A DNA stretch of 64,000 nt from Acidimicrobiia bacterium (GTDB lineage Bacteria; Actinomycetota; Acidimicrobiia; Spongiisociales; UBA11373). Every line of letters begins with the position of its first letter. The first letter of the stretch is position 1. Location: assembly GCA_040878325.1 (NCBI GenBank), contig JBBDMM010000007.1:6635-70634 (forward strand). Direction: 5' to 3'. The translations under genes and the position numbers were made by a program. Below are positions 21,686 through 59,352 of this stretch, piece by piece. A model generated the notes under the pieces. It worked only from the letters and a program-made list of their open reading frames with translations. It did not search any database and had not been told where the DNA came from.

Positions 21686-21838
21686 GCGAGGCGAGCGAGG
21701 CGCGATAAGCAATTCGCGAAGCGACGAACGAAGCAAGGATGCTCGCTTGGCTCGCCCGCTTGGGTGGCCCTTGTTTGGCTGAGGCTGGAGCTGTGGCTGG
21801 GCCGGTTCTCTGGCTGGAGCTGGAGCCGGGGCTGGCTC
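21686..21838. repeat. Degenerate heptamer-periodic tandem repeats in the dnaG upstream intergenic region
   Basis: gaggcga gcgaggc gcgataa gcaattc gcgaagc gacgaac gaagcaa, then ggctggagctgtggctgg...ggctggagctggagcc. Confidence 0.7.
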
Positions 21839-21839
21839 G

Positions 21840-23159
21840 CTACACCAACCCGCCGAACCTGCCATTGAGGTGCTCGACCAGGTCGGTGATGGGGATCCGG
21901 ACCTGTTCGGTGGTGTCTCGGTCGCGGACCGTGACCGCCTGATCCTGGAGCGTGTCGAAGTCGATCGTCACGCAGTAGGGGGTGCCGATCTCGTCCTGGC
22001 GCCGGTAGCGGCGGCCGATCGACTGGGTGACATCCACCTCGATGGGCCACCGGCGACGCAACTCGGCGGCGACTTCGTCGGTGACCGCGACCAGGTCGTC
22101 CTTCTTGGAGAGGGGAAGCACGGCCACCTTCACGGGAGCCAAACGAGGATGAAGGCGAAGCACCACCCGCGATTCGCCGCCGACTTCGTCCTCTTCGTAC
22201 GCGTCGACCAGAAACGCGAAAGCCGAGCGCGTCACCCCGGCGGCGGGCTCGATCACATGCGGAAAGAACCGCTCGTCGCTCTCCTGGTCGTAGTAGCGCA
22301 AGTCGACGCCACTGTGTTCGGTGTGGGCCCGGAGGTCGAAGTCCGCCCGGTTGGCGATCCCCTCCAGCTCGTCCCACCCCCATGGGAACAAGTACTCGAC
22401 GTCGCTGGTGGCGTTGGAGTAGTGGGCCAACTCGTCGGTCTCGTGCGCCCGCAGCCGCACCCGCTCGGGAGCCATGCCCAGGTCGATGTACCACTGCAGC
22501 CGGGCATCGAGCCAGTAGCGATGCCACTTTTCGGCTTCCTCGGGTCTGCAGAAGAACTCCATCTCCATCTGCTCGAATTCGCGGGTACGGAACACGAACT
22601 GGCCGGGGGTGATCTCGTTACGGAAAGCCTTGCCGATCTGGGCGATGCCGAAGGGGAGGCGCATCCGGGTGGTGCGCCGCACGTTCTCGTAGTTGATGAA
22701 GATCCCCTGGGCGGTTTCCGGACGCAGGTAGACGAGGGCGGCATCGTCCTCGACCGGCCCCAAATGGGTGCGCAGCATGAGGTGGAAGGGGCGGGGCTCG
22801 GTGAAAGTGCCTTCCTTGCCGCAGTTCGGGCACTTGTTCGGGTCATCGAGCTTGTCGACCCGGAACCGGTTGTTGCAGTTGCGGCACTCGACCAGCGGAT
22901 CGGTGAAGGACGCCTCGTGGCCGGAGGCGACCCAGACCTGACGGGCCTGGAGGATCGACGAGTCGAGGCCGACGATGTCGTCGCGGTCGCGCACCATCGT
23001 TCGCCACCATGCGTCGCGCAGGTTTCGGAGCAACTCCACCCCGAGGGGCCCGTAGTCCCACGACGACCGCAAACCCCCATAGATCTCGGACGCCGGGAAC
23101 ACGAACCCCCGCCGCTTGGCGAGATTCGCAATGGTGTCGAGGGAAGGGGCAGGCATGGG
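21840..23159 (-). CDS. glyQS: Glycine--tRNA ligase (alpha2 dimeric GlyQS type)
   Basis: Class II aaRS motifs and anticodon-binding domain. The likely start is [20 protein letters not shown]. The ORF's 27-aa N-extension is probably not translated. Confidence 0.85.
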
Positions 23160-23178
23160 GGGCGATGTTAGGGGGAAG

Positions 23179-23257
23179 CCGCCAGCCTCCAGCCTCCCGC
23201 CTCCAGCAAGACCGACTCCAGCGCGCCGCGCATTGCTCATTGCGCATTGCGCATTGC
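23179..23257. repeat. Tandem heptamer arrays (CCTCCAG)n and (CATTGCG)n in the glyQS 5' region
   Basis: gccagcctccagcctcccgcctccagcaag ... cgcattgctcattgcgcattgcgcattgcg. Confidence 0.85.
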
Positions 23258-23277
23258 GGCGAGCGAAGGGAAGCCCC

Positions 23278-23985
23278 TTACCCCACTCCTCCGAACCTTC
23301 GTTCGCGCGCCTGGTACTCCTCCACCGCTTGCTTCAGGTCTTCGGTGCGGAAGTCGGGCCAGAGGATGTCGGGGAAGGCGTACTCGCTGTAGGCGGACTG
23401 CCACAGCAGGAAGTTGCTGACCCTCTGCTCGCCGCTGGTGCGGATCACCAGATCGGGGTCGGGCATATCGGGGATCTCGAAACGGGCCGCCAACGCGTCT
23501 TGGTCGATGTCGGCCGGGTCGATCTGCCCGGCGACCGCGTCGGCAGCCAGACGGCGGGCGGCGGCGGCAATCTCGGCCCTGGCCCCGTAGTTGAAGGCGA
23601 AGACCATCGTCATGTTGGTGTCTTGCGCGGTGAGCTCCTCCGCCTCATGGATTCGGGTGCGGAGACGATCGCCCACCCGTGGATCATCCCGATCTCCGAG
23701 GAAGAGCACTCGCACACCCAACTCGTGCAATTCGTCACGACGCCGGGTGAGGAGGTCCTCCTTGAATCCCATCAGGAACTCGACCTCGTCCGCCGGACGG
23801 GACCAGTTTTCGGTGGAGAACGTAAAAACTGTCAGCCATTCGATCCCGAGCTCCAATGCGCCGTGGACGATGTCGAAGAGGGCGGCCTCGCCGGCGGCGT
23901 GCCCGGCGGTGCGGGGCAACCCTCGGGCCTCGGCCCACCGCCCGTTGCCGTCCATGACGATGGCGACGTGGCGGGGATCAGCCAT
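23278..23985 (-). CDS. uppS: Isoprenyl transferase (undecaprenyl diphosphate synthase)
   Basis: [13 protein letters not shown] ... FNYGARAEI ... [11 protein letters not shown]. Confidence 0.85.
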
Positions 23986-24785: not shown

Positions 24786-27062
24786 ATGACTCGACGTGTG
24801 GCGATCGCCATCGCCATGATCCTGGCGATCCCGGCACCGGGATTTGCTCAGACCGGTGACGACGTGATCATCGAGCCGAGGCCGTGCCCGTGGTGGCACT
24901 GCGGCGGCGAGGCGGACGTCTCCATCGAGGAGTACCGCGTCGACACCGTGATCGAGGACGGCATCGCCACAACCCGCGTGCGCCAGGTGATCCGCAACGA
25001 GTCGGACTTCACGGCCGAAGGAACCTTCCTCTTCCCTCTTCCCGCCGACGCTTCGGTGACCGGGCTCACGCTATGGATCGACGGCGAGGCCGTCTCCGGC
25101 GAAGTGCTCGAAGGCGAGACCGCCCGTCGCACCTACGAGGAGATCATCCGCCGCACACTCGACCCTGCCCTTCTCGAGTTCGTAGACGACGGCATCCTTC
25201 GCCTTTCAGTGTTTCCCATCCCCGCCGAGAAGACCAGAACGGTCGAAATCGAGTACCGCCAGGTCCTCGCCGTCGACGGCGGGCTCACCCGCTACCGGCA
25301 CCCCTTCGCGGCTGAGACCAACGCGGAGATCGAGGTGATCTCGGCGCGGATCGAGATTCGCCACTCATCCGGGGTGAAGGCGGTTCACTCCCCCACCCAT
25401 GAAGTCTCCATCGACCGACCCGATGGGGACACTGCGATCATCGGCTTCGAAGGCGATGGTGACGACCTGGCCGAGTTGATCGTGTACTACTCCACCGACG
25501 CCGGCCCGATCTCTCTCGATGTGATCACTCATCGTCAGGACGGCGAGGGTTACTTCCTGATGCTGGTCTCCCCCGGTCTGGCGACCGATCAACAGGTCGT
25601 CGCCAAGGATGTCGTGCTGGTGCTCGACACTTCGGGATCGATGGAGGGTGAGAAGTTCTCCCAGGCACAGGACGCCGCCCGATTCGTGCTCGATCGCCTC
25701 AACCCGGAGGACCGTTTCGAGGTGATCGCCTTCTCGACGACCACCGACGCGTACGCCGGTTCACTCCAACCGGCGTCGCAGGCTCCCCTGGCGCGAACGT
25801 GGATCGGCGGCCTTGCAGCCGGCGGATCGACCAACATCGACCTCGCCCTGGGCGAAGCCCTCGACCTGGGCGAGGATCGCCCGCTGTACGTGGTCTTCCT
25901 CACGGACGGTCTGCCCACCGAGGGTGTGACCGACTCCGCCAGGATCCTGGACCGCCTCGAAGACCGCGGCGGGTCATCGACTTCGGTGTTCGCGTTCGGT
26001 GTCGGCTACGACGTCGACACTTTCCTCCTCGACTCGATCGCTCGTGACCATCACGGGACCACCGCGTACGTCGGTCCCGGCGAGGAGATCGATCTCGCGG
26101 TCGAGACGCTCTACTCGAAGGTGGCCTCCCCGGTCCTCACCGACGTCACCATCGAGGTGAACGGCGTCACGGTCTCCGACATCCATCCTTCGCCCCTCCC
26201 CGACGTCTTTTCAGGCGGCCAGTTGGTCGTGGCAGGCCGTTACGACGAACCCGGCGATGCCACCGTCGTCCTCTCCGGACGGGTCCGCGGCGAGACGGTG
26301 GACTTCACATTCCGTGACGTCCGCTTCGGCGACTCGGGCCAGGACGATTCCATCCCGCGTCTGTGGGCCACCCGCAAGGTGGGAGACCTGTTGCGGCAGG
26401 TGCGCCTCGAGGGGCCGGACGAAGAGACCATCGACCAGATCGTGCGCCTGTCGATCCGCTGGGGCATCGTCACTCCGTACACCTCGTACCTCGTCACCGA
26501 CGACGCCCCGTTCGGCGAAGAGGCGATCGGCGACATCGCCGCGAGGGCGGCCGCCGAGGCCGAGAGCACCCCGCCGCCCGTGTCGGGCGAGACCGCTTTC
26601 GGCGCCGCCGATGCTGCGGCCTCGATGAGCGACTCCGATGTGGTCTCCGGACCCGACGACACGTATGCGTCGTTGGTGCGGGTGGCTGGCGGCCGCACCT
26701 TCCGGTTGACCGAGGGCAAGTGGGTCGACACCACCTATGAACCGGGGATGGAGGCGATCCGGGTGCCGTTCGGATCAGACGACTACTTCGCCCTGGCCAC
26801 CTCCGACCGGGCCCTCGGACTGGCCCTGACCGTGGATGCCTCGATGATCGTGGTCCACCAAGGCGTGGCATATGAAGTCGTCGACGCGGGCGAGACGGGT
26901 GACCCCCTGCCGGTGCTGCCAGACGAGGAGATCATCGTCGCGCCGGCCAGTGCCCCCGAACCCTCCGGAGACGACCCGCCGATCGCCCTGATCGTGTTGG
27001 CGGGCGCTGCCGCCCTCGCGGTGACGGCCGGTCTGATCCGCGCCGCCACCCGCAGGGGCTAG
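24786..27062 (+). CDS. Secreted VIT domain + von Willebrand factor A domain protein with C-terminal TM anchor
   Basis: Signal peptide, VIT region, vWA MIDAS motif DTSGSM, C-terminal hydrophobic segment IALIVLAGAAALAVTAGLI. Confidence 0.8.
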   Translation: MTRRVAIAIAMILAIPAPGFAQTGDDVIIEPRPCPWWHCGGEADVSIEEYRVDTVIEDGIATTRVRQVIRNESDFTAEGTFLFPLPADASVTGLTLWIDGEAVSGEVLEGETARRTYEEIIRRTLDPALLEFVDDGILRLSVFPIPAEKTRTVEIEYRQVLAVDGGLTRYRHPFAAETNAEIEVISARIEIRHSSGVKAVHSPTHEVSIDRPDGDTAIIGFEGDGDDLAELIVYYSTDAGPISLDVITHRQDGEGYFLMLVSPGLATDQQVVAKDVVLVLDTSGSMEGEKFSQAQDAARFVLDRLNPEDRFEVIAFSTTTDAYAGSLQPASQAPLARTWIGGLAAGGSTNIDLALGEALDLGEDRPLYVVFLTDGLPTEGVTDSARILDRLEDRGGSSTSVFAFGVGYDVDTFLLDSIARDHHGTTAYVGPGEEIDLAVETLYSKVASPVLTDVTIEVNGVTVSDIHPSPLPDVFSGGQLVVAGRYDEPGDATVVLSGRVRGETVDFTFRDVRFGDSGQDDSIPRLWATRKVGDLLRQVRLEGPDEETIDQIVRLSIRWGIVTPYTSYLVTDDAPFGEEAIGDIAARAAAEAESTPPPVSGETAFGAADAAASMSDSDVVSGPDDTYASLVRVAGGRTFRLTEGKWVDTTYEPGMEAIRVPFGSDDYFALATSDRALGLALTVDASMIVVHQGVAYEVVDAGETGDPLPVLPDEEIIVAPASAPEPSGDDPPIALIVLAGAAALAVTAGLIRAATRRG

Positions 27063-27565: not shown

Positions 27566-27850
27566 ATGTCCACACCACTCAGCCCGAAAGAGAAGCAGTC
27601 CCTCGCCGACACGCACCCGTCGTGGTCGATCGAGGGTGAGGAGATCTCGCGAACGTTCGAATTCTCGGATTTTGCCGAAGCCATCGGTTTCATCAACCGG
27701 GTCGCTCTGGTGGCCGAGAAGGCGGACCATCACCCCGACATCGACATCCGCTGGAACAAGGTCACCCTGGTTTTCAGCACCCACTCGGCCGGAGCACTCA
27801 CCGACCTGGATCGAAAGCTGGTCGAGACGATCGACGCCTGGGAGGGCTGA
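27566..27850 (+). CDS. phhB: 4a-hydroxytetrahydrobiopterin dehydratase (PCD/DCoH)
   Basis: FINRVALVAEKADHHPDIDIRWNKVTL signature. Confidence 0.8.
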   Translation: MSTPLSPKEKQSLADTHPSWSIEGEEISRTFEFSDFAEAIGFINRVALVAEKADHHPDIDIRWNKVTLVFSTHSAGALTDLDRKLVETIDAWEG

Positions 27851-27912
27851 CCCGGGCTGTCGGGTCCCGCTCAAGGGCTTGCCGGTAGCCGGAAGCGGGT
27901 AGCCCTCCTCCT
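27850..27912. repeat. Heptamer-periodic degenerate repeats (ccggtag ccggaag cgggtag ccctcct cctccct atccctc)
   Basis: Read directly. Lies between convergent phhB and the thioesterase gene. Confidence 0.6.
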
Positions 27913-27914
27913 CC

Positions 27915-31450: not shown

Positions 31451-33699
31451 GCGGGCTGGGCACTCCTCGGCGCGGGGAACCCGGGGTACGGAATCCGGGT
31501 GTGGTAGTACCCGATGAGGGCGTCGACAAAGGCCTCCTTGATGCGGGTGAGCTCGCCAAAGGTCACTTCGGACTCCTCCAGCTGCCCGTCCTCGACCTTC
31601 TCGGCGATGATTGCCTCCACCAGGCGCCTGATGCCCTCACTGGTGGGGTCCTCGCTCTGTACCAGGGTCCGGGTGGCCGCCTCGGTCGCATCGGCGAGCA
31701 TGAGGATGACCATCTCCTTGGTGCGCGGCTTGCGCCCCCGGTGGCGATAATCGGCAGGCTCCATCCGGTCGCCGTACACCTCCTCCGCCTTGTGGCTGAA
31801 GAACCGCATCAGGCTGGTGCCGTGGTGGGTGAGGATCCCCTGGGCCACGTCGGGAGGGATCCGGAACTCGCGAGCGAGGCGAAGCCCCTCGGAGACATGA
31901 CCCCGAATGATCGCGGCCGACTCCTCGGGCGGCAGCCGGTCGTGTGGGTTGGTGACCCCGAACTGGTTCTCGACGAAGTACTTGGGCTGAACCGTCTTGC
32001 CAAGGTCGTGGTAGTACGCCATCGCCCTGGCAAGCAGCGGGTTGGCGCCGATCGCTCGAGCCGCCCGGTCGGCGAGGCTGCCGACCAGCACGCTGTGGTT
32101 GAAGGTCCCCGGTGCCACCTCCTCCACCCGGCGCAATGCGGGATGGTTGCGGTCGGTGAGGTCGAGCAGGGTCTGCGTCGTCGTTATCCCGAACGCCGAC
32201 GACAGGATCGGCATCACCCCCAGGGCGGCGACGCCGGAGACGATCCCTCCGACGAACCCCCACACGGCCGACACGAGCAGCAGATCCTGCAGGTCGGCAG
32301 CGTCAGGGCCGTAGAAGAACCAGGCGAGAGCAACGGCTAGGGGCACCTGGATGACCGCCGAGAAGATCACCGCGAGGTTCAGCTCGGCACGGGAGGCGAC
32401 CGAGGTCACCAATGGGATCGGAGTCAGGGTCGCCCCGGCGGCGAATACCACGAGAGCCAGATCGCCGGTGGCGAGTGCGGTGAAGGCGGTTATCGGCACC
32501 GCCATCAGCACCGCTATGCGCGCATCGAACAGGTTCGCCGCCAGGTAACCGAAGAATGCCGCCGGCAACAGGAAGCCCAGTTCGATCCGATCGCGCGCCA
32601 CGACTTCGGGCACCCGCGAGCTCACCGCGGCCAGCACCACCAGCAGGCCGAAGAGGGCGACCTTCTTGGGATCTCGCCACAGGTCGCGAGTGACCCGGGC
32701 CATGAACACAGCCGCGAGGAGAACGACGATGGCGGCGATGGCCGCCATCGCCCGCAACGGGATCGGCTCGTCGCCGGGCGCGGCCAGCCCGAGATCCTTG
32801 ATCGCAGTGGCCTGCACCTGAGTGATCAGCTGACCGATCGACACGATGCTCTGACCCGCCACATAGTGCTCCTGAATCGGCTCCACCGAGTCGCGCGCCG
32901 CCAGGCGATCACGCTCCGTGGCGTCGGGGTCGAAGAACTCGTTCGACTGGAGGTACGCCCCGAGGACATCTGCCACCGACGCCTCGGCGGCATCTCGCAG
33001 CTCCTCCGGCAGCAGCACCATCGGGCGGGGGTCGGTGACCAGGGTGGCCTTGACGGCATCGAGCTCCGTCGGGCGAATTCCGTCTAGAGCGTGCGCGGTG
33101 GCGATGTCGAGGGCCGCCTGCTGGACGATCGGGAACAGCTCCGTCTCGCCGTTCTCCACCCGCTCGCGGTCGTCATTGACGAGGGCCACGAGCGTGTCCA
33201 GGGTCTCATCCTGCACCAACGGGTGGAGAACTTGAAGGACGGCGATCTGATCCTGGCGAGGGGGAGGTTCCAGGGCGATGGTGGTCGTCGTCGTCTCTGC
33301 AACAGTCGTCGTGGTGTCGTCCGGCGAAGTCGTCGTCGTCTCGGGCACCGTCGTGGAAGTGGGATCGTCGGGAGGTGCAACCGGCTGGGCCCCGGTGTGA
33401 ACGTTCTGGAACAGCTCGGCGATGCTGTTCAGCATGGCTTCGGTGGCCGACGGCTCCACCCGGTACACATCCGCCACCGCCGCAGCCGCCGCCTGCCGCT
33501 CGGCCTCGGTCCTCGCCTCGTCCTCCACCGAGATGCCCACCGGGGCGATGAATGTCACCGGCGACGGGTCGCCGACGTTGAGGGCAATCGGTTCCACCGC
33601 CTGCTCCTGGCCGACGAGGAGGGCGATCGATGCGAAGAGAACTGTCGCGGCGAGCACCGCGAACCGGGCCGCTCCCGAAAGCCGGGCTCTCAATCTCAC
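31447..33699 (-). CDS. 7TM receptor with intracellular HD hydrolase (7TM-HD, PgpH-like)
   Basis: Large extracellular N-domain, 7 TM, HD motif HSVLVGSLA ... YYHDLGK. Confidence 0.8.
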   Translation of the reverse strand: MRLRARLSGAARFAVLAATVLFASIALLVGQEQAVEPIALNVGDPSPVTFIAPVGISVEDEARTEAERQAAAAAVADVYRVEPSATEAMLNSIAELFQNVHTGAQPVAPPDDPTSTTVPETTTTSPDDTTTTVAETTTTTIALEPPPRQDQIAVLQVLHPLVQDETLDTLVALVNDDRERVENGETELFPIVQQAALDIATAHALDGIRPTELDAVKATLVTDPRPMVLLPEELRDAAEASVADVLGAYLQSNEFFDPDATERDRLAARDSVEPIQEHYVAGQSIVSIGQLITQVQATAIKDLGLAAPGDEPIPLRAMAAIAAIVVLLAAVFMARVTRDLWRDPKKVALFGLLVVLAAVSSRVPEVVARDRIELGFLLPAAFFGYLAANLFDARIAVLMAVPITAFTALATGDLALVVFAAGATLTPIPLVTSVASRAELNLAVIFSAVIQVPLAVALAWFFYGPDAADLQDLLLVSAVWGFVGGIVSGVAALGVMPILSSAFGITTTQTLLDLTDRNHPALRRVEEVAPGTFNHSVLVGSLADRAARAIGANPLLARAMAYYHDLGKTVQPKYFVENQFGVTNPHDRLPPEESAAIIRGHVSEGLRLAREFRIPPDVAQGILTHHGTSLMRFFSHKAEEVYGDRMEPADYRHRGRKPRTKEMVILMLADATEAATRTLVQSEDPTSEGIRRLVEAIIAEKVEDGQLEESEVTFGELTRIKEAFVDALIGYYHTRIPYPGFPAPRSAQPA

Positions 33700-34664
33700 C
33701 GCTTCTCCTCGTACTCGCGGTAGGCCTCGACGATCGCCGCCACAATGCGATGGCGAACGACGTCCTCGGCGCCGAGGATCACGAAGGACACCCCCGGGAT
33801 CTCATCGAGGACATCGCGCACCTGGCGCAATCCGGAGGCCTTCCCGGTGGGGAGGTCGACCTGAGTGACGTCGCCGGTGATCACCATCTTGGAGTTGAAA
33901 CCGAGCCGGGTGAGGAACATCTTCATCTGCTCCGGAGAAGTGTTCTGGGCCTCGTCGAGCACTACGAAGGCATCGTTGAGGGTTCGGCCCCGCATGTAGG
34001 CAAGGGGGGCGATCTCGATGGTGCCTCGTTCCATCATGCGCTGGGTCTCGTCGGGTCCCAGCATGTCATAGAGGGCGTCGTACAGGGGCCGCAGGTACGG
34101 ATCCACCTTGGCGGCGAGGTCCCCCGGCAGGAAGCCCAACCGCTCCCCCGCCTCCACGGCGGGCCGGGTGAGGATGAGGCGAGATACCGCCCCCGATTCG
34201 AGGCCGGCAACCGCCACCGCCATCGCCAGGTAGGTCTTGCCCGTCCCCGCCGGGCCGATCGAGAAGATCACGGTGTTGCGGCGGATGGCGTCGAGATACC
34301 GCTTCTGGTTGAGGGTCTTCGGCCGCACTATCTTGCCCCGCCCTACCGCGACGCCATCGCTGAACACTTCCGACGGGCTCGCCACCTCAGCCTTGACGAG
34401 GTCGATCACCCGCCGTACCCGGTCCTCGTCGAGGGATTGGCCCTCTCGCACCAGGACGAGCAGTTCTTCGAGCGTGGTCTTGGCGAGCGTCTTCGACGGC
34501 TCCGGCCCGGCGATCCGCAGCTCGTCGCCCCTCGCCACGATGAGCACGTCGATGAACGCCTCTTCCACGAGGCGCAGGAACGCGTCGCGTTCGCCCAGGA
34601 GAGCCAGCATCAGGTGGTCGCCGGGGACGCGCAGCGTGACCTCATCGAGAGATGCTTGCGTCAC
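33696..34664 (-). CDS. phoH: PhoH-like ATPase
   Basis: Walker A GPAGTGKTYLA. Confidence 0.85.
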   Translation of the reverse strand: MTQASLDEVTLRVPGDHLMLALLGERDAFLRLVEEAFIDVLIVARGDELRIAGPEPSKTLAKTTLEELLVLVREGQSLDEDRVRRVIDLVKAEVASPSEVFSDGVAVGRGKIVRPKTLNQKRYLDAIRRNTVIFSIGPAGTGKTYLAMAVAVAGLESGAVSRLILTRPAVEAGERLGFLPGDLAAKVDPYLRPLYDALYDMLGPDETQRMMERGTIEIAPLAYMRGRTLNDAFVVLDEAQNTSPEQMKMFLTRLGFNSKMVITGDVTQVDLPTGKASGLRQVRDVLDEIPGVSFVILGAEDVVRHRIVAAIVEAYREYEEKR

Positions 34665-34716
34665 AGAAATCCTCGTATTGGGAGGAACATTGAGAGGACA
34701 GGACTATACCGGGGCC

Positions 34717-34843
34717 CAGCCACAGCCACAGCCCCGAGACGGCTCGAGCCACTGCCACGGCCCCAGCCAGAGACGCGTTGGAGATACTCGAAAGGTAGGA
34801 GCCGCCTCCGGCCGGGGCTGGAGCCCTGGGGCTGGGGGGCTGA
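34717..34843. repeat. Heptamer-type tandem repeats (ccacagccacagcc; gccactgccacggccccagccag; ggggctggagccctggggctggggggctgag)
   Basis: Read directly in the phoH upstream intergenic region. Confidence 0.7.
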
Positions 34844-34864
34844 GCCGGCCGAAAGGCCGGCTCA
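34841..34864 (-). terminator. GC hairpin tgagccggcc-gaaa-ggccggctca at the 3' end of the XRE gene
   Basis: Perfect 10-bp stem with a 4-nt loop, overlapping the stop codon. Confidence 0.4.
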
Positions 34865-41403: not shown

Positions 41404-41406
41404 GAA

Positions 41407-41432
41407 GCCTCCAGCCTCCAGCCTCCAGCCTC
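41407..41432. repeat. (CCTCCAG)3 heptamer array, near-identical to the copy at 23179-23208
   Basis: gcctccagcctccagcctccagcaag lies between convergent greA and the downstream gene. Confidence 0.85.
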
Positions 41433-41485
41433 CAGCAAGAGAAGAGAGCGGGCCTGCGGCCGCTGGGCGGCCTGCTTCTCCAGAT

Positions 41486-42130: not shown

Positions 42131-42267
42131 GTGACTTCGATAGCCCTGACTCGTCCGATTGCCGGTGACATTGCCACACCTTGGGGAGGCTGCTCGGTCA
42201 GCGTACCTGGATGCCTTCTCTCACAAGGTCGCGTGCCGTGGGACCGAGCATCCACGATCAAATCCGC

Positions 42268-42316
42268 CGCGCCGCGCATTGCGCATCCACTTCTGGCCAA
42301 TCGCCAATCGCGGGCC
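42268..42316. repeat. Heptamer arrays (CATTGCG)2 and (CCAATCG)2
   Basis: gccgcgcattgcgcatcc ... ggccaatcgccaatcgcggg. Related to the 23228-23257 array. Confidence 0.7.
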
Positions 42317-47845: not shown

Positions 47846-48074
47846 GCACCATCAACGGCCCCAGATCGGCCAGCGAGGCACGGAGCCGGTCGGGATGGAC
47901 ATAGACCCCCCACGGGAGCGCCACGGCGGTGACGCCTCGGGCCCAGAAGAACCGGAACCAGCGGGCGGCCTCCCACACCGGGACGCGAGTGGCGTCGACC
48001 CGGGGAAGCGCCTGCGCCAGAGCCGCCCGGTCGATGCCGGCGGCATCCACGGCCTCGGCGATCGAGAACCTCAC
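47673..48074 (-). CDS. Hypothetical protein with HExxH motif (HELTHIEQW), DUF4157-like
   Basis: 133-aa ORF immediately downstream of leuS. Confidence 0.4.
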   Translation of the reverse strand: MRFSIAEAVDAAGIDRAALAQALPRVDATRVPVWEAARWFRFFWARGVTAVALPWGVYVHPDRLRASLADLGPLMVHELTHIEQWRRLGAIGWLRSYVGDYLRSRRGGLPHHDAYRAIGLEVEARGTAARLSG

Positions 48075-50809
48075 TGGACCACGTTGACGAGACTCGGTGG
48101 GCGCACGATCACCCGCCGCGGCTCGGCTCCCCCCAGTAGGGCCTGCACCTTCTCCGAGCCGAGTGCCAACTGGCGGGCCGCGTCTTCACCGATGGCGGCC
48201 GGCACCTCGATGCGGTCCCGCACCTTGCCGTTCACCTGGACGACCATCGTTACCGTCTCCTCGGCCGCGAGCGCCTCGTCGAACTCGGGCCACGGCGCCA
48301 TCGCGATCGACGGCTCGTGACCGAGGCGCTCCCACAACTCCTCGCAGATGTGAGGAGCGAGGGGGGCGAGCAGCCGGATGAAGACCTCGGAGACGACTCG
48401 CGGGACCCGCTCCAGGGGCACCAGGGCGTTGTTCAACTCGAACATTCGCGCCAGCGCGGTGTTGAAGCGGAGTTGGCCCATGTCCTCGGTTACCTCCCGG
48501 ATGGTCCGATGGAGCAGACGCAACGTCCCGTCGTCCGGGGACTCCTCGGTCACCAGCAGCTCGCCGCTGTCGGGGTCGACATGATTCCGCCACAGCCGCT
48601 GCAGAAAGCGGATCACTCCGACGATGTCGCGAGTGGTCCACGGCTTCGACGCGTCGAGCGGTCCCATGAACATCTCGTAGAGACGGAGCGTGTCGGCGCC
48701 ATGCTCGGCGACGAACTCATCGGGAGTGACGGAGTTCTTCTTCGACTTGCCCATTTTGCCGGTGCGGAGGTGCACCACCTCGTCCTCGTAGAGGTATGCC
48801 CCATCGCGGAACTCGACCTTTTCCGCCGGAACGTAGAAGCCCCGGTCGTCCTGGAAGGCGTCGGCGAGGATGTACCCCTGGTTGAACAGGCGCCCGAACG
48901 GCTCGGCGGTCGAGACCAACCCGAGGTCGTAGAGGACCTTGTGCCAGAAGCGGGCATACAGCAGGTGGAGGACGGCGTGCTCCACTCCGCCGACGTAGAG
49001 ATCCACCCCGTGCTCGCCCATCCAGTAGCGCTCGGCGGCCTCCCCGACAAGGCGTTCGGTGTTCCCCGGGTCGGCGAATCGCAGGTAATACCAGCAGGAG
49101 CCCGCCCATTGGGGCATCGTGTTCAGCTCGCGCCGGTAGGGCACGCCGTCGATCTCGACGACACGCCACTCCTCGTCTGCCCGGCCGAGAGCGGGAACCG
49201 GATCCGAGCGCTCGTCTTGATTCGTGTCCGGCTTGAAGTCGTCGAGAGCGGGCAGGAGCACGGGGAGGTCGGCGTCCTCCACTGCGCGCAACTCACCGTC
49301 AGGCCCGTGAAGGATCGGGATTGGCTCGCCCCAATACCGCTGGCGGCTGAACAGCCAGTCATGGAGCTTGTAGGTGATCGTCGCCCTGCCCAACTTGCCG
49401 TTCTTGAGCCACTCGATGATCCGTGCCTTGGCGGCGGCGACACTCAGACCGTCGAGGAACCCACTGTTGATGGCCGGTCCCTCTTCCAGGTAGGCCTTTC
49501 CGTCCCAGCCTGCCGGCGGGTCGACGGTCCGGAGGATCGGGAGATCGAACAGCTCGGCAAACTCCCAGTCGCGCTCGTCCTGCCCCGGCACTGCCATGAT
49601 CGCTCCAGTGCCATACCCCAACAGCACGTAGTCGGCGACAAACACCGGGATCGGTTCGTCGGTCACCGGGTTGATGCAGAACGAGCCGGCGAAGACCCCG
49701 GTCTTCTCCCGGGCCTCCATCTGGCGGTCGATCTCGGTGCGGCTGAGCGCATCGGCGACGTACGCGGTGACGGCCTCGCCCGGCGTGGCGGCACCACCGG
49801 TCCACACCGGGCGGGTCCCGGCGGGCCACTCTTCGACAACCAGCGAGGGGACGAGCGGGTGGTCCGGGGCCACGACCACGTAGGTCGCCCCGAAGATGGT
49901 GTCGGGCCGGGTGGTGAACACTTCGATCGCGCTCTCCCCGCCGGCAACCGCAAAGCGAATCGTCGCTCCTTCGCTGCGGCCGATCCAATTCCGCTGCATC
50001 GCCTTCACTGACTCCGGCCATTCCACGAGGTCGAGATCGTCGATGAGTCGGTCGGCATACGCGGTGATGCGCAGCATCCATTGACGCAAAGGCCGGCGGA
50101 ACACCGGATGATCGCCGCGTTCGCTCTTGCCGTCGCGGGTCACTTCCTCGTTGGCGAGGACGGTCCCCAGAGCCGGGCACCAGTTCACCATCACCTCGTC
50201 GATGTAGGCGAGGCGGCGACCATTCAGGTACCGCCTCCTGGCAGATGGGTCGAGGTCAGCCCATGGAGTTCCTTCCGCACTTCGCTCACCCGCCTCGAGT
50301 TCCTCTTCCAGCTCGTCGATCGGACGGGCGTGCTGGCGATCGGGGTCGAACCAGGAGCCGAACAGCCGCAGAAAGATCCACTGAGTCCACCGGTAGTAGC
50401 CCACATCCGTGGTCGACAGCATCCGGTCCCAGTCATACGACAGACCGATCGATCTCAGCTGCCGCTCGTAGTTGGCGACATTCCGCTCGGTGGTGATCCG
50501 CGGGTGGATGCCCGTCTCGACGGCGTACTGCTCGGCGGGGAGCCCGAACGCGTCGAACCCCATCGGGTGAAGGACGTTGTGGCCCCGCATGCGTTGATAC
50601 CGCGAGTAGATGTCGGTGCCGATGTATCCGATCGGCTGGCCGACGTGGAGCCCCTCCCCCGACGGGTACGGGAACATGTCGAGCACATACATCTTCGGCT
50701 TCGAGGCGTCGAAGTTCGGATCGTCGGGGTCACCCGCGCGAAACGTCCCGTGGCGGTCCCAGTACTCCTGCCACTTCCGTTCGATCTCGAGGTGGTCGTA
50801 AGCCGTCAA
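48071..50809 (-). CDS. leuS: Leucine--tRNA ligase
   Basis: HMGH-type motif region, KMSKS (KMGKSKKN), CP1 editing domain. No in-frame ATG before YDHLEIERKW, so a TTG (50809) or GTG (50839) start is inferred. Confidence 0.85.
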   Translation of the reverse strand: MTAYDHLEIERKWQEYWDRHGTFRAGDPDDPNFDASKPKMYVLDMFPYPSGEGLHVGQPIGYIGTDIYSRYQRMRGHNVLHPMGFDAFGLPAEQYAVETGIHPRITTERNVANYERQLRSIGLSYDWDRMLSTTDVGYYRWTQWIFLRLFGSWFDPDRQHARPIDELEEELEAGERSAEGTPWADLDPSARRRYLNGRRLAYIDEVMVNWCPALGTVLANEEVTRDGKSERGDHPVFRRPLRQWMLRITAYADRLIDDLDLVEWPESVKAMQRNWIGRSEGATIRFAVAGGESAIEVFTTRPDTIFGATYVVVAPDHPLVPSLVVEEWPAGTRPVWTGGAATPGEAVTAYVADALSRTEIDRQMEAREKTGVFAGSFCINPVTDEPIPVFVADYVLLGYGTGAIMAVPGQDERDWEFAELFDLPILRTVDPPAGWDGKAYLEEGPAINSGFLDGLSVAAAKARIIEWLKNGKLGRATITYKLHDWLFSRQRYWGEPIPILHGPDGELRAVEDADLPVLLPALDDFKPDTNQDERSDPVPALGRADEEWRVVEIDGVPYRRELNTMPQWAGSCWYYLRFADPGNTERLVGEAAERYWMGEHGVDLYVGGVEHAVLHLLYARFWHKVLYDLGLVSTAEPFGRLFNQGYILADAFQDDRGFYVPAEKVEFRDGAYLYEDEVVHLRTGKMGKSKKNSVTPDEFVAEHGADTLRLYEMFMGPLDASKPWTTRDIVGVIRFLQRLWRNHVDPDSGELLVTEESPDDGTLRLLHRTIREVTEDMGQLRFNTALARMFELNNALVPLERVPRVVSEVFIRLLAPLAPHICEELWERLGHEPSIAMAPWPEFDEALAAEETVTMVVQVNGKVRDRIEVPAAIGEDAARQLALGSEKVQALLGGAEPRRVIVRPPSLVNVVQ

Positions 50810-50905
50810 GTCCTGCCATCCGAGAGGATGCCGGAGAATAGACAGCACGCGTGAGACGGCGGCCAGCCGGGGAGCGGGCAGCCACTGATACAATCCGCCC
50901 ATTCC

Positions 50906-50978
50906 GGGGCTGTAGCTCAGTTGGCAGAGCACTTGCATGGCATGCAAGGGGTCAGGGGTTCAAATCCCCTCAGCTCCA
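50906..50978 (+). tRNA. tRNA-Ala (anticodon GGC)
   Basis: ggggctgtagctcagttggcagagcacttgcatGGCatgcaaggggtcaggggttcaaatcccctcagctcca. The G3:U70 Ala identity pair is present. Confidence 0.8.
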
Positions 50979-51041
50979 CCCGGTTCATGCCCGGGCCGAC
51001 TTCGGCGGCTTTGCCGCCGAACAGACGCCGGTCGGCCCGCC

Positions 51042-51547: not shown

Positions 51548-51558
51548 GGCTGCTCCGA

Positions 51559-53699: not shown

Positions 53700-54131
53700 T
53701 CAGGCCGCTGCCACCAGCCGCACGCCAGGCCCAGGACTGAGCGAACCGCAACCAGCCCGCATCGGATCGAGGTAGCGATCTCCGAGCCGGAGGGAGAAAT
53801 GGATCGCCTCCAACCCGTGATCGACGCCCGACAGTCCGATGATCTCGCCCGCACGGACATGCTGACCCTGCGCCACGGAACGGCTGCTCAGATAAGAGTA
53901 GGAGGTGCGCACCGACCCGCCGTGGCTGATGGTGACGCTGGCGCGCCCGGCGACTTGCCCCGAGAAGGTGACCACACCCGCATCGGCGGCCCCCACCGAG
54001 GTCCCCGCAGGCACCGCGATGTCTATCCCCCAGTGGCCGCCGTAGAGCCCCTCAGGCGCGAATCCCCGGACGACCGGACCGTCGGCCGGTAGCCCAATTA
54101 GGCATGAAACGAAGAGCGCCGCGATCAACAA
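53700..54131 (-). CDS. M23 family (LytM-like) peptidase
   Basis: HWGIDIAVPAGTSV ... HFSLR motifs. Confidence 0.65.
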   Translation of the reverse strand: MLIAALFVSCLIGLPADGPVVRGFAPEGLYGGHWGIDIAVPAGTSVGAADAGVVTFSGQVAGRASVTISHGGSVRTSYSYLSSRSVAQGQHVRAGEIIGLSGVDHGLEAIHFSLRLGDRYLDPMRAGCGSLSPGPGVRLVAAA

Positions 54132-54192: not shown

Positions 54193-54255
54193 GGCCGGCC
54201 GGAGGCCGGCCCAAGGCGGCCAAAGGCCGCCCGGCCGCCCGGAGACTGGAGACTG
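54193..54255. repeat. Intergenic GC hairpins plus (GGAGACT)2 heptamer repeat
   Basis: ggccggccggaggccggcc; ggcggccaaaggccgcc; ggagactggagactg. Confidence 0.6.
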
Positions 54256-54256
54256 A

Positions 54257-54646
54257 TTACGCGATCGCTTGGGCAGCGGGGCCCGCGAGCAGCCCGAGGG
54301 CGACGCTACGCAGGTCGTCCGGGCGGAACGGTTTGGTGAGAAAGGCGTCGGCGCCACCGCGGTCGGCTCGCTCTCGCGTCTCCTCCTGGGCGTGGGCGGT
54401 CAGCACCAGCACCTTCATGCCCCGGGTCCGAACATCCGAGCGGATTCTCTCGAGCACTTCCCACCCATCCATTCGCGGGAGGCCCACGTCGAGGATCAGT
54501 AGGTCGGGCCGAGTAGTCAGGGCCGCCTCGAGGCCGGTGGGGCCGTCTGACCGCGTCTCGACCTCTACGCCCGCGGGGCGGAGGCATACCGAGATCAACC
54601 GCTGGATGACGGCTGAGTCCTCGACCACCAATACACGCTGAGCCAC
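54257..54646 (-). CDS. Single-domain response regulator (CheY-like receiver)
   Basis: VLVVEDSAVIQ ... LLILDVGLPRMDG ... KP. Confidence 0.7.
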   Translation of the reverse strand: MAQRVLVVEDSAVIQRLISVCLRPAGVEVETRSDGPTGLEAALTTRPDLLILDVGLPRMDGWEVLERIRSDVRTRGMKVLVLTAHAQEETRERADRGGADAFLTKPFRPDDLRSVALGLLAGPAAQAIA

Positions 54647-57057: not shown

Positions 57058-57136
57058 CGGATCGTGACGGTCTGGCACAGAGGGGAGTGTATGAAGACCC
57101 GGGCGCCGAGGATGCCTGAGGGTTTGGTGCTCGGCC

Positions 57137-58411
57137 TCACGACGACTTCTCGTCATCGATATCGGGGTCACTGAACTCGAAGACGACGTCGCCGATTCGA
57201 ACCTCGTCGCCGGGCAGTGCGCCCGCCTTGCGGAGAGCTTCGTCGACACCCGCTCGGGAGAGCCTCCTGGCGGCGAATCCGGCCGCCTCCGGCTTGGTCA
57301 GGTCGTCCAGCGCCACCGCCCGCTCGGCCACCTGCCCCTCGACGACCCACCGGCTGCCGTCGTGGTGGATCTCGAAGCCCCGCGGGCTCGGTCGATGCAG
57401 CACGTACCCCTCGGCGTCGGGCACCTCCCGCTCCACCCGCTCCACCGCATCGCCGATGGCATGCAAGAGCCCGTTGATTCCCTCACCGGTGACCGCGGAG
57501 ATCGCCCGCGCCGCGACACCGATTGCAGCAAGCGCCGCGATCGCCACTGCGGCTTCGGGAAGGTCCGCCTTTGACACCGCGACGATCTCCTCCCGCGCCG
57601 CCAGGCGGGGGTCATGGTTCATCAGTTCCTGGCGGAGGATGCCCAACTGACGCACGCAATCGACCTCCTGGAGGGTCGAAGGGTCGAGCAGCACGACCAA
57701 CGCCCGGGCCCGTTCGGCGTGGCGCAGGAACCGATGGCCCAGCCCTCGACCCTCGGCCGCTCCCTCGATGAGACCCGGAATGTCTGCAAGCACGAAACGA
57801 CGATCATCAATCTCTACCACGCCCAGATTCGGCTCCAGTGTGGTGAACGGATAGTCGGCGATCTTGGGGCGGGCGGCCGAGACCCGGGCGATCAGGGTGC
57901 TCTTGCCGGCATTGGGGAATCCGATCAGAGCGGCATCGGCGATGAGCTTCAATTCGAAAGTGAAGTCGGCCTCGGGTCCGTACTCACCCTGTTCGGCGAA
58001 CGCCGGCGCCAGCGCCTTGGGACCGGCGAGAGCGACGTTTCCCTTGCCGCCGCGGCCCCCCCGCACCAGAACCACCCGCTGTCCCGGGCGGGCAAGATCG
58101 GCGATCATCGTGCCGGCGTCGTCGCGAATCACCGTCCCTGGTGGGACCGCAAGGACCAGGTCCGACCCCTGCCGCCCCTGCTGAAAGTCGCCCTTGCCGT
58201 GGGTTCCAGACTCGGCGCGCCGGTGGGGACGCCGCTGAAAGTCGAGCAGCGTCGAGACCTCGGAGTTGGCCTCCGCGATGACATCGCCCCCGGCCCCGCC
58301 CGATCCGCCCAAAGGCTTGCCTCGCGGGCGACCGCGGACGCGCTCGAATGCGACGATCCCCGCGCCGCCATCACCGGCGCGAAGGTGAACGGTGACCTCG
58401 TCGACGAACAC
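57137..58411 (-). CDS. obgE: GTPase ObgE/CgtA
   Basis: Obg fold N-domain; GFPNAGKST, DIPGLIEGA. Confidence 0.9.
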   Translation of the reverse strand: MFVDEVTVHLRAGDGGAGIVAFERVRGRPRGKPLGGSGGAGGDVIAEANSEVSTLLDFQRRPHRRAESGTHGKGDFQQGRQGSDLVLAVPPGTVIRDDAGTMIADLARPGQRVVLVRGGRGGKGNVALAGPKALAPAFAEQGEYGPEADFTFELKLIADAALIGFPNAGKSTLIARVSAARPKIADYPFTTLEPNLGVVEIDDRRFVLADIPGLIEGAAEGRGLGHRFLRHAERARALVVLLDPSTLQEVDCVRQLGILRQELMNHDPRLAAREEIVAVSKADLPEAAVAIAALAAIGVAARAISAVTGEGINGLLHAIGDAVERVEREVPDAEGYVLHRPSPRGFEIHHDGSRWVVEGQVAERAVALDDLTKPEAAGFAARRLSRAGVDEALRKAGALPGDEVRIGDVVFEFSDPDIDDEKSS

Positions 58412-58430
58412 GGCTCAGCCGAGCCGCGGA

Positions 58431-58685
58431 CTATTCGCCGGCGAGGACGCTGACTTCGCGGCGTCCTCGCCGCGAGCCATAGCTGACGACCCCGTCGGCA
58501 GTGGCGAAGAGCGTGTCGTCGTTGCCGCGGCCGACGTTGCGACCGGGGTGGATCTTTGTGCCGCGCTGCCTGACGATGATCGACCCGGCCGTCACTTCCT
58601 GGCCGTCGAAAACCTTCGAACCGAGGCGCTTGGCGTGTGAGTCACGGCCGTTCTTGGTCGAACCGCCGCCCTTGGTCTTCGACAT
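58431..58685 (-). CDS. rpmA: 50S ribosomal protein L27
   Basis: [16 protein letters not shown]... Confidence 0.9.
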
Positions 58686-58686
58686 C

Positions 58687-59244
58687 TCAGGACTCCTTCT
58701 TGGGCTTGGGCTTGGCCGCAGCGGGCTTCTTGCTCGCCGCCGGCTTCTTGGCCGCCGCGGCAGTCTTGGCCGCAGGCTTCTTGGCCGCAGGCTTCTTGGC
58801 CGCTGCGGGTTTTGCTGCCGCGGGTTTGGCTGCGGCGGGTTTGGCCGCCGCGGGTTTGGCCGCCGGCGGCGAATCCTTGGGGGCGTTCTCCTTCGAGGCG
58901 TCCTCGGTGGTCGCGGGTTCCTTGGCTGCCTGCTTCTTGGGTAGTTCGATCTTCAGGACTTCGAGGGTCGTGTACTTCTGGCGGTGCCCGCCGCGCTTGC
59001 GGTAACCGGTCTTTGCCTTGTACTTGAAGATCTCGATCTTGTCGCCCGCCGACTCCCCGACGACCTTGGCGGTCACCTTTGCCGACTTGAGCTCGTCACG
59101 GCTCGAATAGACCTTGCCCTTGTCGTCGACGACGAGCAGAGGGGTGAAGCTGAGCTCGCCGTCAGCGCGCACGCGCTCGACGTCGATGACGTCGCCTTCG
59201 CGCACTTTCGTCTGCTTGCCGCCGGAGCGGATGATGGCGTACAT
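58687..59244 (-). CDS. rplU: 50S ribosomal protein L21 with an approximately 80-aa Ala/Lys/Pro-rich C-terminal extension
   Basis: [11 protein letters not shown]... core, followed by an (AAKPA)n tail encoded by tandem 15-bp repeats. Confidence 0.85.
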
Positions 59245-59288
59245 AGTCAGAGGTCCTAAGGCCGGGAGGTGTAAATCCTAGCCGATAG

Positions 59289-59352
59289 CCACCAGCCACC
59301 AGCCACCAGCCAGATATGCCTCTTGCTATGGGCCGTGGGCTGTGGGCTGTCG
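59289..59352. repeat. Heptamer arrays (CCACCAG)3 and (TGGGCTG)3
   Basis: ccaccagccaccagccaccagcca ... gggccgtgggctgtgggctgtcg, between rplU and rne. Confidence 0.85.

Follow-up and report, generated by a model that had tools for sequence, protein, structure and literature searches.

The window analyzed here is a 64-kb stretch of DNA from an uncultured member of the Acidimicrobiia (contig JBBDMM010000007.1), with a G+C content of 66%. Several of its intergenic spacers carry short tandem arrays of heptanucleotides, which are the subject of this report. An earlier reading of the letters (the original prediction) had listed eight such sites between positions 21686 and 59352. The genes that neighbor these sites are housekeeping genes, with recO listed among them. 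Tandem arrays were called with Tandem Repeats Finder (TRF), and orthologous loci of related genomes were gathered via three markers, namely, glycyl-tRNA synthetase (GlyRS), RNase E, and open reading frame 214 (ORF214), which encodes a membrane hypothetical protein. Loci and contigs from these other genomes are labeled with L-numbers (L054, L122, L215, etc.). Altogether, 49 arrays were catalogued across the window and its relatives. A contig search with window proteins matched only short Logan contigs that are identical to the window.

The glyS gene (21840-23156, - strand) encodes GlyRS and is located between dnaG (19866-21638, -) and uppS (23278-23985, -). Upstream of dnaG, a run of about six units of the NNNTCGC type (21686-21726, -) is degenerate and received no TRF call. 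Its orthologues are clearer, with (CCATCGC)2.3 in L122 (1571-1586) and (ATCCGCA)3.3 plus (CCAATTG)3.4 in L130 (1889-2015). In the same spacer, a C-rich CCAGCY run (21778-21838, -) begins 4 nucleotides (nt) past the glyS stop codon and ends in CCAGCCAGA, located at 21809-21817; TRF assigns a period of 6/12, not 7, to 21778-21835. The spacer upstream of glyS contains two proper arrays. The first in plus-strand order (the B array; 23177-23207, -) reads (AGCCTCC)4.4 on the plus strand and (GGAGGCT)4.4 on the glyS sense strand, where it abuts the -10-like hexamer TAACAT (23165-23170, -), 8 nt 5' of the glyS ATG. The hexamer is conserved in L122, L123, and L124 and may represent a leaderless-type promoter. 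The junction motif CCAGCAAGA (23203-23211, +; TCTTGC on the glyS sense strand) marks the inner end of this array. The second array, (GCGCATT)4.4 or (GCAATGC)4.4 on the minus strand (23228-23258, -), begins 19 nt past the uppS stop codon. Its GCAATGC unit is partly self-complementary and recurs with the same GCGGCGCG flank at 42253-42286.

The spacer between the BldD-like regulator gene (34862-35452, -) and phoH (33696-34664, -) shows a period of 6 with irregular C-rich and G-rich arms (34717-34843). Directly 3' of the BldD-like gene stop, a strong terminator-like hairpin is followed by a C-rich arm of AGCCCCC/AGCCCCA units (34815-34866, -). The G-rich arm, made of GGCTGT/GGCTGG units on the phoH sense strand with a period of 6 to 7 (34717-34771, -; period 6/12 by TRF for 34717-34733), ends at the -10-like box TATAGT (34703-34708, -). 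In the predicted fold, the G-rich arm pairs with the C-rich arm (z = -2.98).

A perfect (AGCCTCC)4.4 array (41406-41436, +; TRF) begins 2 nt past the stop codon of greA (40924-41403, +) and ends in AGCAAGAG. It is followed by a GC hairpin flanked by AAGAGAAGAGA and CTTCTCC (41437-41485, from folds of both strands), a putative bidirectional terminator between greA (+) and ORF214 (41486-42130, -). On the other side of ORF214, between its start and the holA stop codon (holA, 42338-43510, -), TRF called GCGCATT in 1.9 copies (GCGCAAT on the minus strand; 42268-42285, -) and (GCCAATC)2.3, given as (GCGATTG)2.3 on the minus strand (42296-42311, -). The orthologous array in L220 (158-184) is (CGCAATT)3.9. 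Further along the window, (GGAGACT)2.1, or (AGTCTCC)2.1 on the minus strand (54241-54255, -; TRF), begins 2 nt past the stop codon of a response regulator gene (54257-54646, -), in the spacer shared with an M23 peptidase gene (53700-54131, -), and is followed by two GC hairpins (feature 54195-54255, -). Taken alone, this array is at chance level; its orthologue in L215 (16713-16740) has 4.0 copies.

The most regular pair lies between rne (RNase E/G; 59361-61073, -) and rplU (58687-59244, -). A C-rich 5' arm, (GCTGTGG)3.7 or (ACAGCCC)3.7 on the minus strand (59325-59350, -; TRF), begins 10 nt past the rne stop codon. It is separated by a hairpin loop (59313-59324, -) from a G-rich 3' arm, (AGCCACC)3.7 or (TGGCTGG)3.7 on the minus strand (59287-59312, -; TRF), after which the -10-like box TAGGAT (59275-59280, -) lies upstream of rplU. 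The AGCAAGAG motif (GCAAGAG, 59320-59326) overlaps the 5' side of the loop and extends 2 to 3 nt into the C-rich arm, and the two arms form a hairpin with a z-score of -2.07. As a separate observation, the (TGGCTGG)n array (59287-59312, -) contains the Escherichia coli Chi octamer GCTGGTGG once per unit, and the CCACCAG unit named in the original prediction is therefore its complement; in a GC-rich actinobacterium, such a match is probably coincidental. Within rplU itself, tandem repeats of 15 and 30 nt (58708-58869) encode an Ala/Lys/Pro-rich C-terminal tail of L21, which has 185 amino acids in the window versus about 100 for the L21 domain.

The last of the eight sites (27850-27912) is a doubtful member. 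It comprises a weak CCTNNNC-like run (27890-27912) beside a GC hairpin between convergent genes, without a TRF call, with a lag-7 self-match of 0.42 over a 64-nt segment and a fold z-score of about 0. Overall, five of the eight predicted sites are true arrays, and the other three are 6/12-periodic, degenerate, or weak; the strong arrays were confirmed but three sites proved weaker, and the initial observation is therefore partly confirmed. The reported vicinity of GC hairpins was borne out by the folds. The arrays had also been described as lying mostly between convergent genes or in 5' leaders. This does not hold, as six sites are co-directional and run from a stop codon to the next start, and only 27851-27914 and 41404-41485 lie between convergent genes.

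To what extent the 7-nt period departs from chance was assessed with dinucleotide-preserving shuffles and self-matching. Three period-7 runs in the window reach three or more exact copies, no run does so at periods 5, 8, 10, and 11, and 200 shuffles contained none (mean 0, maximum 0). Across 25 short intergenic segments (3.1 kb in total), self-matching is highest at lag 7 (0.313; shuffles, 0.282; z = 4.1) and has harmonics at lags 14 and 21. Two-copy heptamers are barely above expectation (12 observed versus 6.25 in shuffles, with a maximum of 15). The sole coding period-7 hit in the window is a 2.3-copy match at 25028-25043 (TRF). The period-7 arrays are thus not due to chance, in line with the original prediction.

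The arrays are also present in related genomes. A clade sample of 162 kb contains 37 period-7 arrays (22.9 per 100 kb), compared to 6 in 707 kb of glyS loci from more distant relatives (0.8 per 100 kb), a roughly 27-fold difference in density. At periods 4, 5, 8, 10, and 11, the same clade sample contains 0, 0, 1, 1, and 1 arrays, respectively, so that period 7 is the dominant repeat class in this clade. The array-bearing close relatives share 71 to 98% GlyRS identity or 77 to 93% nucleotide identity with the window. Their units are diverse and include GCTACCC, GCGGAAG, GCCGTCC, AGTAACC (13 copies), ACGATGA, AAGTTGA, CTTTGAA, GCAATAC, AGTCTCC, AAGCGGC, CGGGCGT, and GAATCAA. The longer TRF arrays have 3.7 to 4.4 copies in the window and up to 13.3 in the relatives. 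Relatives carry arrays outside the region that corresponds to the window, as in L215, which has arrays beyond the window end, between a folC-like gene and ndk; the phenomenon is therefore not confined to the window. Together with the roughly 27-fold density, this goes against the outcome that was named as a refutation of the original prediction. The arrays are consequently not "genome-specific," as they had been called, and are common to a clade of related genomes. All arrays of about three or more copies in the window, L215, L219, and L221 lie between called genes, and in some fragments arrays are found in over half of those intergenic spacers that measure about 100 nt or more.

At orthologous spacers upstream of glyS, dnaG, and rplU, arrays are kept while their unit sequence changes. 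In the glyS spacer, a G-rich GCGGANG/GCTGGAG array of four to five copies is present in the window, L122 (92% nucleotide identity to the window), L123, and L124 (both about 80%), where GCGGANG arrays are the orthologues of the window array at 23177-23207. In all four, it is preceded by TCTTGC and followed by CCTAACATCGCC-ATG, and the upstream-side array is different in each. L126, L127, and L131 have unrelated arrays at this position. No array was found upstream of glyS in L125, L128, and L129, where the spacers are short (32 nt in L125). Likewise, the rne-rplU spacer reads (ACAGCCC)3.7, a AGCAAGAG loop, and (TGGCTGG)3.7 in the window; it has more copies and an additional (GGCTGTC)n block in L215 and L216, (AGCCCAC)3.7 ... 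(GGCTGTT)3.4 in L217 and L218, and a plain long hairpin in L219.

The closest pair of relatives captures length change directly. L215 and L216, two metagenome-assembled genomes (MAGs), are 99.75% identical over 13.7 kb. Their rne-rplU arrays differ by 19 nt (7+5+7) in the C-rich arm and by 35 nt (5x7) in the G-rich arm, and the only other length differences are two scaffold N-gaps and one 3-nt coding indel. The copy number of the C-rich arm also differs between L215, L216, and L217. At other sites, copy numbers are 2.1 versus 4.0 (window and L215), 4.4 versus 6.3 (window and L220, at the greA array), and 2.4 versus 3.4 (L221 and L224). Moreover, arrays are built from blocks of identical variant units, such as (TGGCTGG)5 TGGCTGT (CGGCTGT)7 and (CGTCGGG)5 (CAACGGG)2 (TAACGGG)3. 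Length change combined with variant blocks is the signature expected of slipped-strand mispairing followed by local homogenization. A shared generating mechanism had been proposed from the outset, with slippage as one option, and both types of observation directly support that option. The earlier interpretation, in which the arrays are not random and share a mechanism, is hence supported as essentially right.

The arrays have a recurrent anatomy. Of the 49 catalogued arrays, 20 begin within 25 nt after a stop codon, and 14 of these 20 are C-rich and G-poor on the sense strand of that gene (4 have more G than C). These C-rich arrays typically contain about 55% C and 16% G; counted as independent loci, they make up about 10 of 13. 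In the 25 nt next to arrays, the hexamer GCAAGA/TCTTGC shows a 23-fold enrichment, and GCAAGAG occurs 14 times in the window versus 6.5 expected. At at least nine independent loci, C-rich arrays end in GC-AAGA(G/C), and several spacers have a GC-rich inner hairpin between GCAAGAG and CTCTTGC. This hints at the A-tract and U-tract of bidirectional intrinsic terminators. Array pairs that flank the core are imperfect complements and fold into one long hairpin in L122, L123, L130, and the phoH and rplU spacers of the window, with z-scores for the spacers of L122, L123, and L130 of -4.65, -5.2, and -3.0, respectively. Typically, 5 to 6 of 7 positions are complementary, and the mismatched position is constant from unit to unit. 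In the rplU hairpin, the mismatch is fixed, the arms remain complementary at 5 to 6 of 7 positions, and compensatory changes were not observed. A search of Rfam 15 returned only three tRNAs in the window at or above the gathering score of a family, with sub-threshold, hairpin-like matches in the array regions. As an observation apart, the A-tract motif is itself amplified as a heptamer array in L221 (2731-2788) and L054 (6633-6662), where (GAATCAA)n and its inverted partner (CTCTTGA)n carry TCAAGA(A/G) units; therefore, the GCAAGAG core and the arrays may share an origin.

On the promoter side, downstream arrays end 0 to 7 nt before a TANNNT hexamer. This is the case for glyS (TAACAT), phoH (TATAGT), ndk (TACCAT, L215), tdk (L219), and rplU in five genomes, with TAAGAT or TAACAT in L215 to L219 where the window has TAGGAT. 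Seven of the 58 window genes, including glyS and dnaG (starts at 21638, 23156, 61073, 61174, 37539, 15667, and 54131), have a TANNNT starting 12 to 15 nt and ending 7 to 10 nt 5' of the start codon, with about one expected by chance, and all seven lack a Shine-Dalgarno sequence. A TANNNT that ends 7 to 10 nt before the start is the layout of leaderless actinobacterial transcripts, as in mycobacteria, which suggests that leaderless transcripts are frequent here as well. The arrays end just before TANNNT and would thus fill a little-constrained stretch upstream of -10-only promoters. Two other assignments were rejected. TCTTGC is not a plausible -35 box, as it lies about 33 nt from the -10 box at a distance that shifts with copy number, and tandem GGAGG does not serve as Shine-Dalgarno or standby sites, since it is not conserved (GGAAGGC in L122, GGATGGC in L123).

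Some array modules recur at unrelated positions. The 38-nt sequence GGAAGCC(G/T)CCAGCCTCCAGCCTCC(C/A)GCCTCCAGCAAGA is shared with 95% identity between 23174-23211 and 41403-41440. More broadly, a module of 38 to 41 nt, GGAAGCC(TCCAGCC)nTCCAGCAAGA, is 95 to 98% identical among these two window sites and two sites in L054, an "Actinomycetota bacterium" MAG contig in which the genes are unrelated to those of the window and the flanks of the module are the same. Variants of the module occur in L219 and L221 in non-homologous gene contexts, and the (AGCCTCC)n module lies 0 to 5 nt past a stop codon at six loci. In addition, L054 pairs (AGCCTCC)4 with (CCATTGC)5.9, as the window pairs its (AGCCTCC) array with (GCATTGC)4. 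The same module and flanks at non-homologous loci imply that some modules were copied between loci or converged. The small dispersed element mentioned as an option in the original prediction thus finds some support, as TAG-GAAGCC(TCCAGCC)nTCCAGCAAGA is present at non-homologous loci in at least three genomes. Among the matches listed, the AGCAAGA flank is absent from the other approximately 119 (CCAGCCN)3-bearing loci and is shared only by L054.

Arrays of (CCAGCCN) with three or more copies are by themselves common. A scan for CCAGCCNCCAGCCNCCAGCC listed matches in at least 120 species from many phyla, with Proteobacteria, Planctomycetota, Acidobacteriota, Actinomycetota, and Bacteroidota among the matches listed, and these arrays often adjoin other heptamer arrays, such as (TAGCCTT)n, (GGCTATC)n, and (CCCCAAC)n. 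AGCC-containing heptamers may therefore be a widespread repeat type. A phage origin was rejected after a scan of viral contigs for CCAGCCTCCAGCAAGA, which returned nine chance or coding matches and no arrays.

ORF214 is flanked by the same two array types that adjoin each other at 23177-23258. It was considered as a split element or array-bounded cassette and rejected, as the membrane hypothetical protein has no mobility domain, its 80% orthologue in L220 keeps both the context and the arrays, and a 67% homologue is located elsewhere without arrays. That homologue (L221 to L224; about 8750-9400 in L221) adjoins a PemK/RHH toxin-antitoxin pair and DinB/Y-family polymerase genes. It lies in a different neighborhood, and this lineage-specific protein therefore moved or was duplicated within the clade.

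Taken together, we consider the arrays to be heptanucleotide microsatellites, i.e., period-7 long simple-sequence repeats, of the intergenic spacers of an uncultured Acidimicrobiia clade (probability of about 0.6). With the same confidence, their origin would be replication slippage in the intergenic DNA that surrounds terminator hairpins, and the structural consequences would be modest or near-neutral. On the sense strand, the upstream stop codon is followed by a first array, usually C-rich and G-poor, and then by GCAAGA(G), a GC-rich hairpin or loop, and (C)TCTTGC. A second array, often an imperfect complement of the first, then leads into the putative TANNNT -10 box of the next gene, which is often predicted to be leaderless. 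Paired arrays would lengthen the terminator stem and fill the unconstrained stretch upstream of -10-only promoters. They would be largely neutral or weakly useful by-products of a lineage-specific slippage bias, in which hairpins may promote stalling and misalignment and whole modules may occasionally be copied between loci.

Several points weigh against this interpretation. By itself, slippage accounts neither for the exclusive 7-nt step nor for the flanks that the (AGCCTCC)n module has in common between non-homologous loci. The same holds for the C-rich bias after stop codons (14 arrays with C>G versus 4 with G>C) and for the recurrent pattern of one mismatch per unit in paired arms. The array densities are based on about 160 kb of fragments selected by a few marker genes. 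Short repeats may be sized wrongly in MAG assemblies, and part of the copy number variation could be assembly noise; against this, the variation is present in independent NCBI, JGI, ENA, and Logan assemblies. Some array-bearing spacers (window glyS, L124, and L127) fold no better than their shuffles. Furthermore, the terminator and promoter roles are predictions from sequence. A terminator consensus scan, which needs five U in eight bases, and a sigma-70 scan found no site at the arrays, although both consensus models fit actinobacterial signals poorly; GC hairpins are present, and the hairpin tails at the arrays are short U/C tracts (UUCUUGC, CUCUUCUCUUGC). Given the 7-nt step, the strand bias, and the shared modules, there is some slight room for a more interesting functional or self-propagating system. 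In such a case, the arrays would be working parts of a lineage-specific intergenic system, in which a process with an inherent 7-nt step builds and resizes the two arms of terminator hairpins, C-rich arms past the stop codons and G-rich arms ahead of the -10 boxes form a tunable termination-insulation code, and modules such as (AGCCTCC)n-AGCAAGAG are copied between loci and genomes by an undescribed mechanism. We regard this as a long shot.

An alternative focused on RNA is that the arrays are functional RNA elements of 3' untranslated regions, in which C-rich, G-poor heptamers past the stop codon serve as Rho-loading (rut-like) sites or as the 5' arm of a regulated terminator, the array length tunes both termination and read-through into the following gene, and the G-rich arm competes for pairing with the C-rich tract. 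The C bias of the stop-proximal arrays and the position of the (AGCCTCC)n module immediately past stop codons argue for this idea, as does the upstream position of the C-rich arm in all four loci whose paired arms differ in C/G. In Actinobacteria, termination depends largely on Rho, and canonical terminators are scarce. However, many arrays are not C-rich (GCAATGC, AAGCGGC, ACGATGA, AAGTTGA, and GAATCAA), pairing with the G-rich arm would hide a rut site, and the 7-nt spacing does not match the spacing of YC dimers recognized by Rho, which is about 11 to 13 nt. Finally, the arrays are absent from the orthologous spacers of L125, L128, and L129 and are so dispensable. A dedicated termination function is thus unlikely.

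Alternatively, the arrays could be the arms of a small dispersed palindrome with the core GCAAGAG...CTCTTGC, copied between intergenic sites by an enzyme, similar to the REPINs (doublets of repetitive extragenic palindromic [REP] sequences) or miniature inverted-repeat transposable elements (MITEs); the heptamer structure would then belong to the element itself. The near-identical modules at non-homologous sites with variants in L219 and L221, the recurrent pairing of (AGCCTCC)n with (NCATTGC)n in the window and L054, the strong association of the core motif with arrays, and the AGCAAGA flank, restricted to L054 and the clade among the matches listed, are all in line with such an element. Yet no terminal inverted repeats, target-site duplications, or fixed boundaries were seen, the loops and most arm sequences are unrelated between copies, and orthologous arrays evolve in place. 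Comparing occupied with empty spacers (L125, L128, and L129) revealed no clear boundaries or duplications, these spacers being highly diverged. Among 28 window proteins scanned, no transposase or REP-associated tyrosine transposase (RAYT) was found, the serine recombinase of the island described below being the only recombinase, and the viral scan gave only chance matches. ORF214, flanked by two modules, has its 67% homologue elsewhere without arrays. We therefore find an enzymatically mobilized element quite improbable.

A third possibility places the function at the DNA level, with the arrays acting as promoter devices, namely, phased sites for protein binding, two-tetrad G-quadruplexes formed by the non-template strand, or phase-variable spacers that would set promoter activity through their copy number. 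The 3' arrays that end 0 to 7 nt before -10-like hexamers at five loci and the GG tracts of many 3' arms (GGAGGCT, GGAAGGC, TGGCTGG, and GCGGGAG) would fit such devices, and there is precedent in the G-quadruplex-forming heptamers of Xanthomonas and Nostoc and in the binding role proposed for TAACTGA repeats (PMC4692102, PMC4679880). On the other hand, the units are too diverse for a single sequence-specific binder, several have no G-tracts (AGTAACC, CTTTGAA, and ACGATGA), and some relatives do without arrays. The flanked genes are housekeeping genes (glyS, dnaG, rplU, and ndk) and hence unlikely phase-variation targets, leaving this explanation very doubtful. Lastly, an origin by chance in GC-rich DNA, from hidden coding repeats, or from assembly artifacts, to which the near-expected number of two-copy heptamers and the individually unconvincing sites at 27850-27912 and 54241-54255 might point, is already refuted by the shuffles (0 of 200 with a three-exact-copy run versus 3 observed) and by the agreement of arrays across independent assemblies, including a 100%-identical Logan contig, along with the 27-fold, period-7-specific enrichment over related GC-rich genomes and the location of all arrays of about three or more copies outside coding ORFs, with a period that is out of frame.

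The interpretation as slippage-derived microsatellites places the arrays in a known class. Heptanucleotides are the commonest class of long simple-sequence repeats (LSSRs) with units of 5 to 11 nt in prokaryotes rich in such repeats (Mrazek 2007, summarized in PMC4679880 and PMC4692102), and 3 of the 10 richest genomes are Actinobacteria according to the summary in PMC4679880. The only published idea for the 7-nt step, as cited in these two papers, is the polymerase footprint, i.e., the DNA segment held by the polymerase, which would favor slippage (Mrazek 2007). As far as that class is described there, it resembles the present arrays in its head-to-tail heptamers beyond chance expectation, mostly intergenic location, preference for period 7, and proposed slippage origin, as well as in its occurrence in free-living bacteria with GC-rich genomes, including Actinobacteria. 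The window and clade arrays show excess tandem copies, over-representation of period 7, a noncoding location, and copy number instability (in MAG assemblies). They have every feature of the heptanucleotide LSSR class that was tested and represent a known class in a new lineage; no description of heptamer repeats in this Acidimicrobiia clade was found in the long-repeat and heptamer literature (PMC4679880, PMC4692102). They differ from the described cases in their lineage, in how many unrelated units a single genome contains, in being linked to a terminator-like core (GCAAGAG/CTCTTGC), and in their position relative to -10 boxes.

The intergenic heptamer repeats of Xanthomonas (GGGAATC) and Nostoc (GGGGA(C/T)T) are among the closest described cases (Rehm et al. 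2015, PMC4692102). [quoted passage not shown] Extensive variation between close relatives and some inverted stem-loop pairs are thus common to both. However, those genomes have one dominant unit with three to four G and G-quadruplex potential, whereas the clade has dozens of units. None reaches three G per unit, with GG at most (GGAGGCT and TGGCTGG), and GCAATGC, AGTAACC, and CTTTGAA have no G-tract at all. Units this varied speak against one sequence-specific binding protein for all arrays, and also against G-quadruplexes as their general role. The TAACTGA repeats found in Beggiatoaceae, Cyanobacteria, and Bacteroidetes lie upstream of start codons (MacGregor 2015, PMC4679880), and cyanobacterial heptanucleotide repeats are represented by the short tandemly repeated repetitive (STRR) sequences of Calothrix PCC 7601, as cited in PMC4692102. 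Both are, like the clade arrays, intergenic tandem heptamers often located just before start codons, including those of ribosomal-protein genes. They differ in having one or few fixed units per genome in AT-richer genomes, with TAACTGA within a few nt of the start, while in the clade the arrays follow stop codons and precede -10 boxes, and their units are GC-rich and variable. The STRR units are CCCCAGT, TTGGTCA, and CAACAGT, and neither these nor TAACTGA are among the 49 catalogued arrays.

Larger repeat families share only part of this picture. The REP, REPIN, and bacterial interspersed mosaic elements (BIMEs) of Proteobacteria are likewise genome-specific families of imperfect palindromes in intergenic DNA. 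They fold into long hairpins, frequently at 3' ends, have copies at non-homologous loci, and have been proposed to act as terminators or mRNA stabilizers. REP sequences are, however, fixed units of 20 to 40 nt with a conserved GTAG, a RAYT transposase, and no internal 7-nt periodicity. Here, only the 7-nt GCAAGAG core and one 38- to 41-nt module recur, and no GTAG was seen. The mycobacterial interspersed repetitive units (MIRUs), which form variable-number tandem repeats (VNTRs), are intercistronic tandem repeats near the upstream stop codon that vary in copy number between strains. Their units measure 40 to 100 bp and are translatable as small coupling ORFs, unlike the 7-nt, out-of-frame units of the clade. 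CRISPR arrays consist of repeats of 25 to 40 nt with unique spacers, and the arrays described here are contiguous 7-nt units. The arrays thus lack the defining features of CRISPR and MIRU elements, and those of REP/REPIN and MITE elements were not seen in the window and the spacers compared.

Why 7-nt units dominate the long simple-sequence repeats of many free-living bacteria has been a question since 2007, and the described cases are few, with one or few units each. This clade constitutes a useful natural data set, combining high array density and dozens of unrelated units in one genome with an orthologous series at 99.7%, 92%, 85%, and 78% identity. It can distinguish an origin by mutation (polymerase slippage with a footprint of 7 nt) from one by selection (for a terminator or Rho-loading function). 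In practice, metagenome assemblies are likely to break at the arrays or to mis-size them, and the arrays could serve as strain-typing (VNTR) markers for this uncultured lineage.

Elsewhere in the window, an integrated mobile element (1-14600) adjoins a tRNA-Met gene (14522-14598). It encodes a type I restriction-modification system (hsdR/S/M, 3-5396, -), a coupling-protein-like ATPase (7328-9403), a Replic_Relax protein (9528-10280), an N6/N4 DNA methylase (10299-11771), an IrrE-like peptidase (11915-12844), and a large serine recombinase (12841-14565). The element has a lower GC content and a strong GC/AT skew, and its 14.6 kb carry no heptamer arrays. Finally, the listed TTG start of a 958-amino-acid ORF (48071-50947, -) overlaps a tRNA-Ala-GGC gene on the opposite strand (50906-50980), and the true start of this ORF is probably located further downstream.

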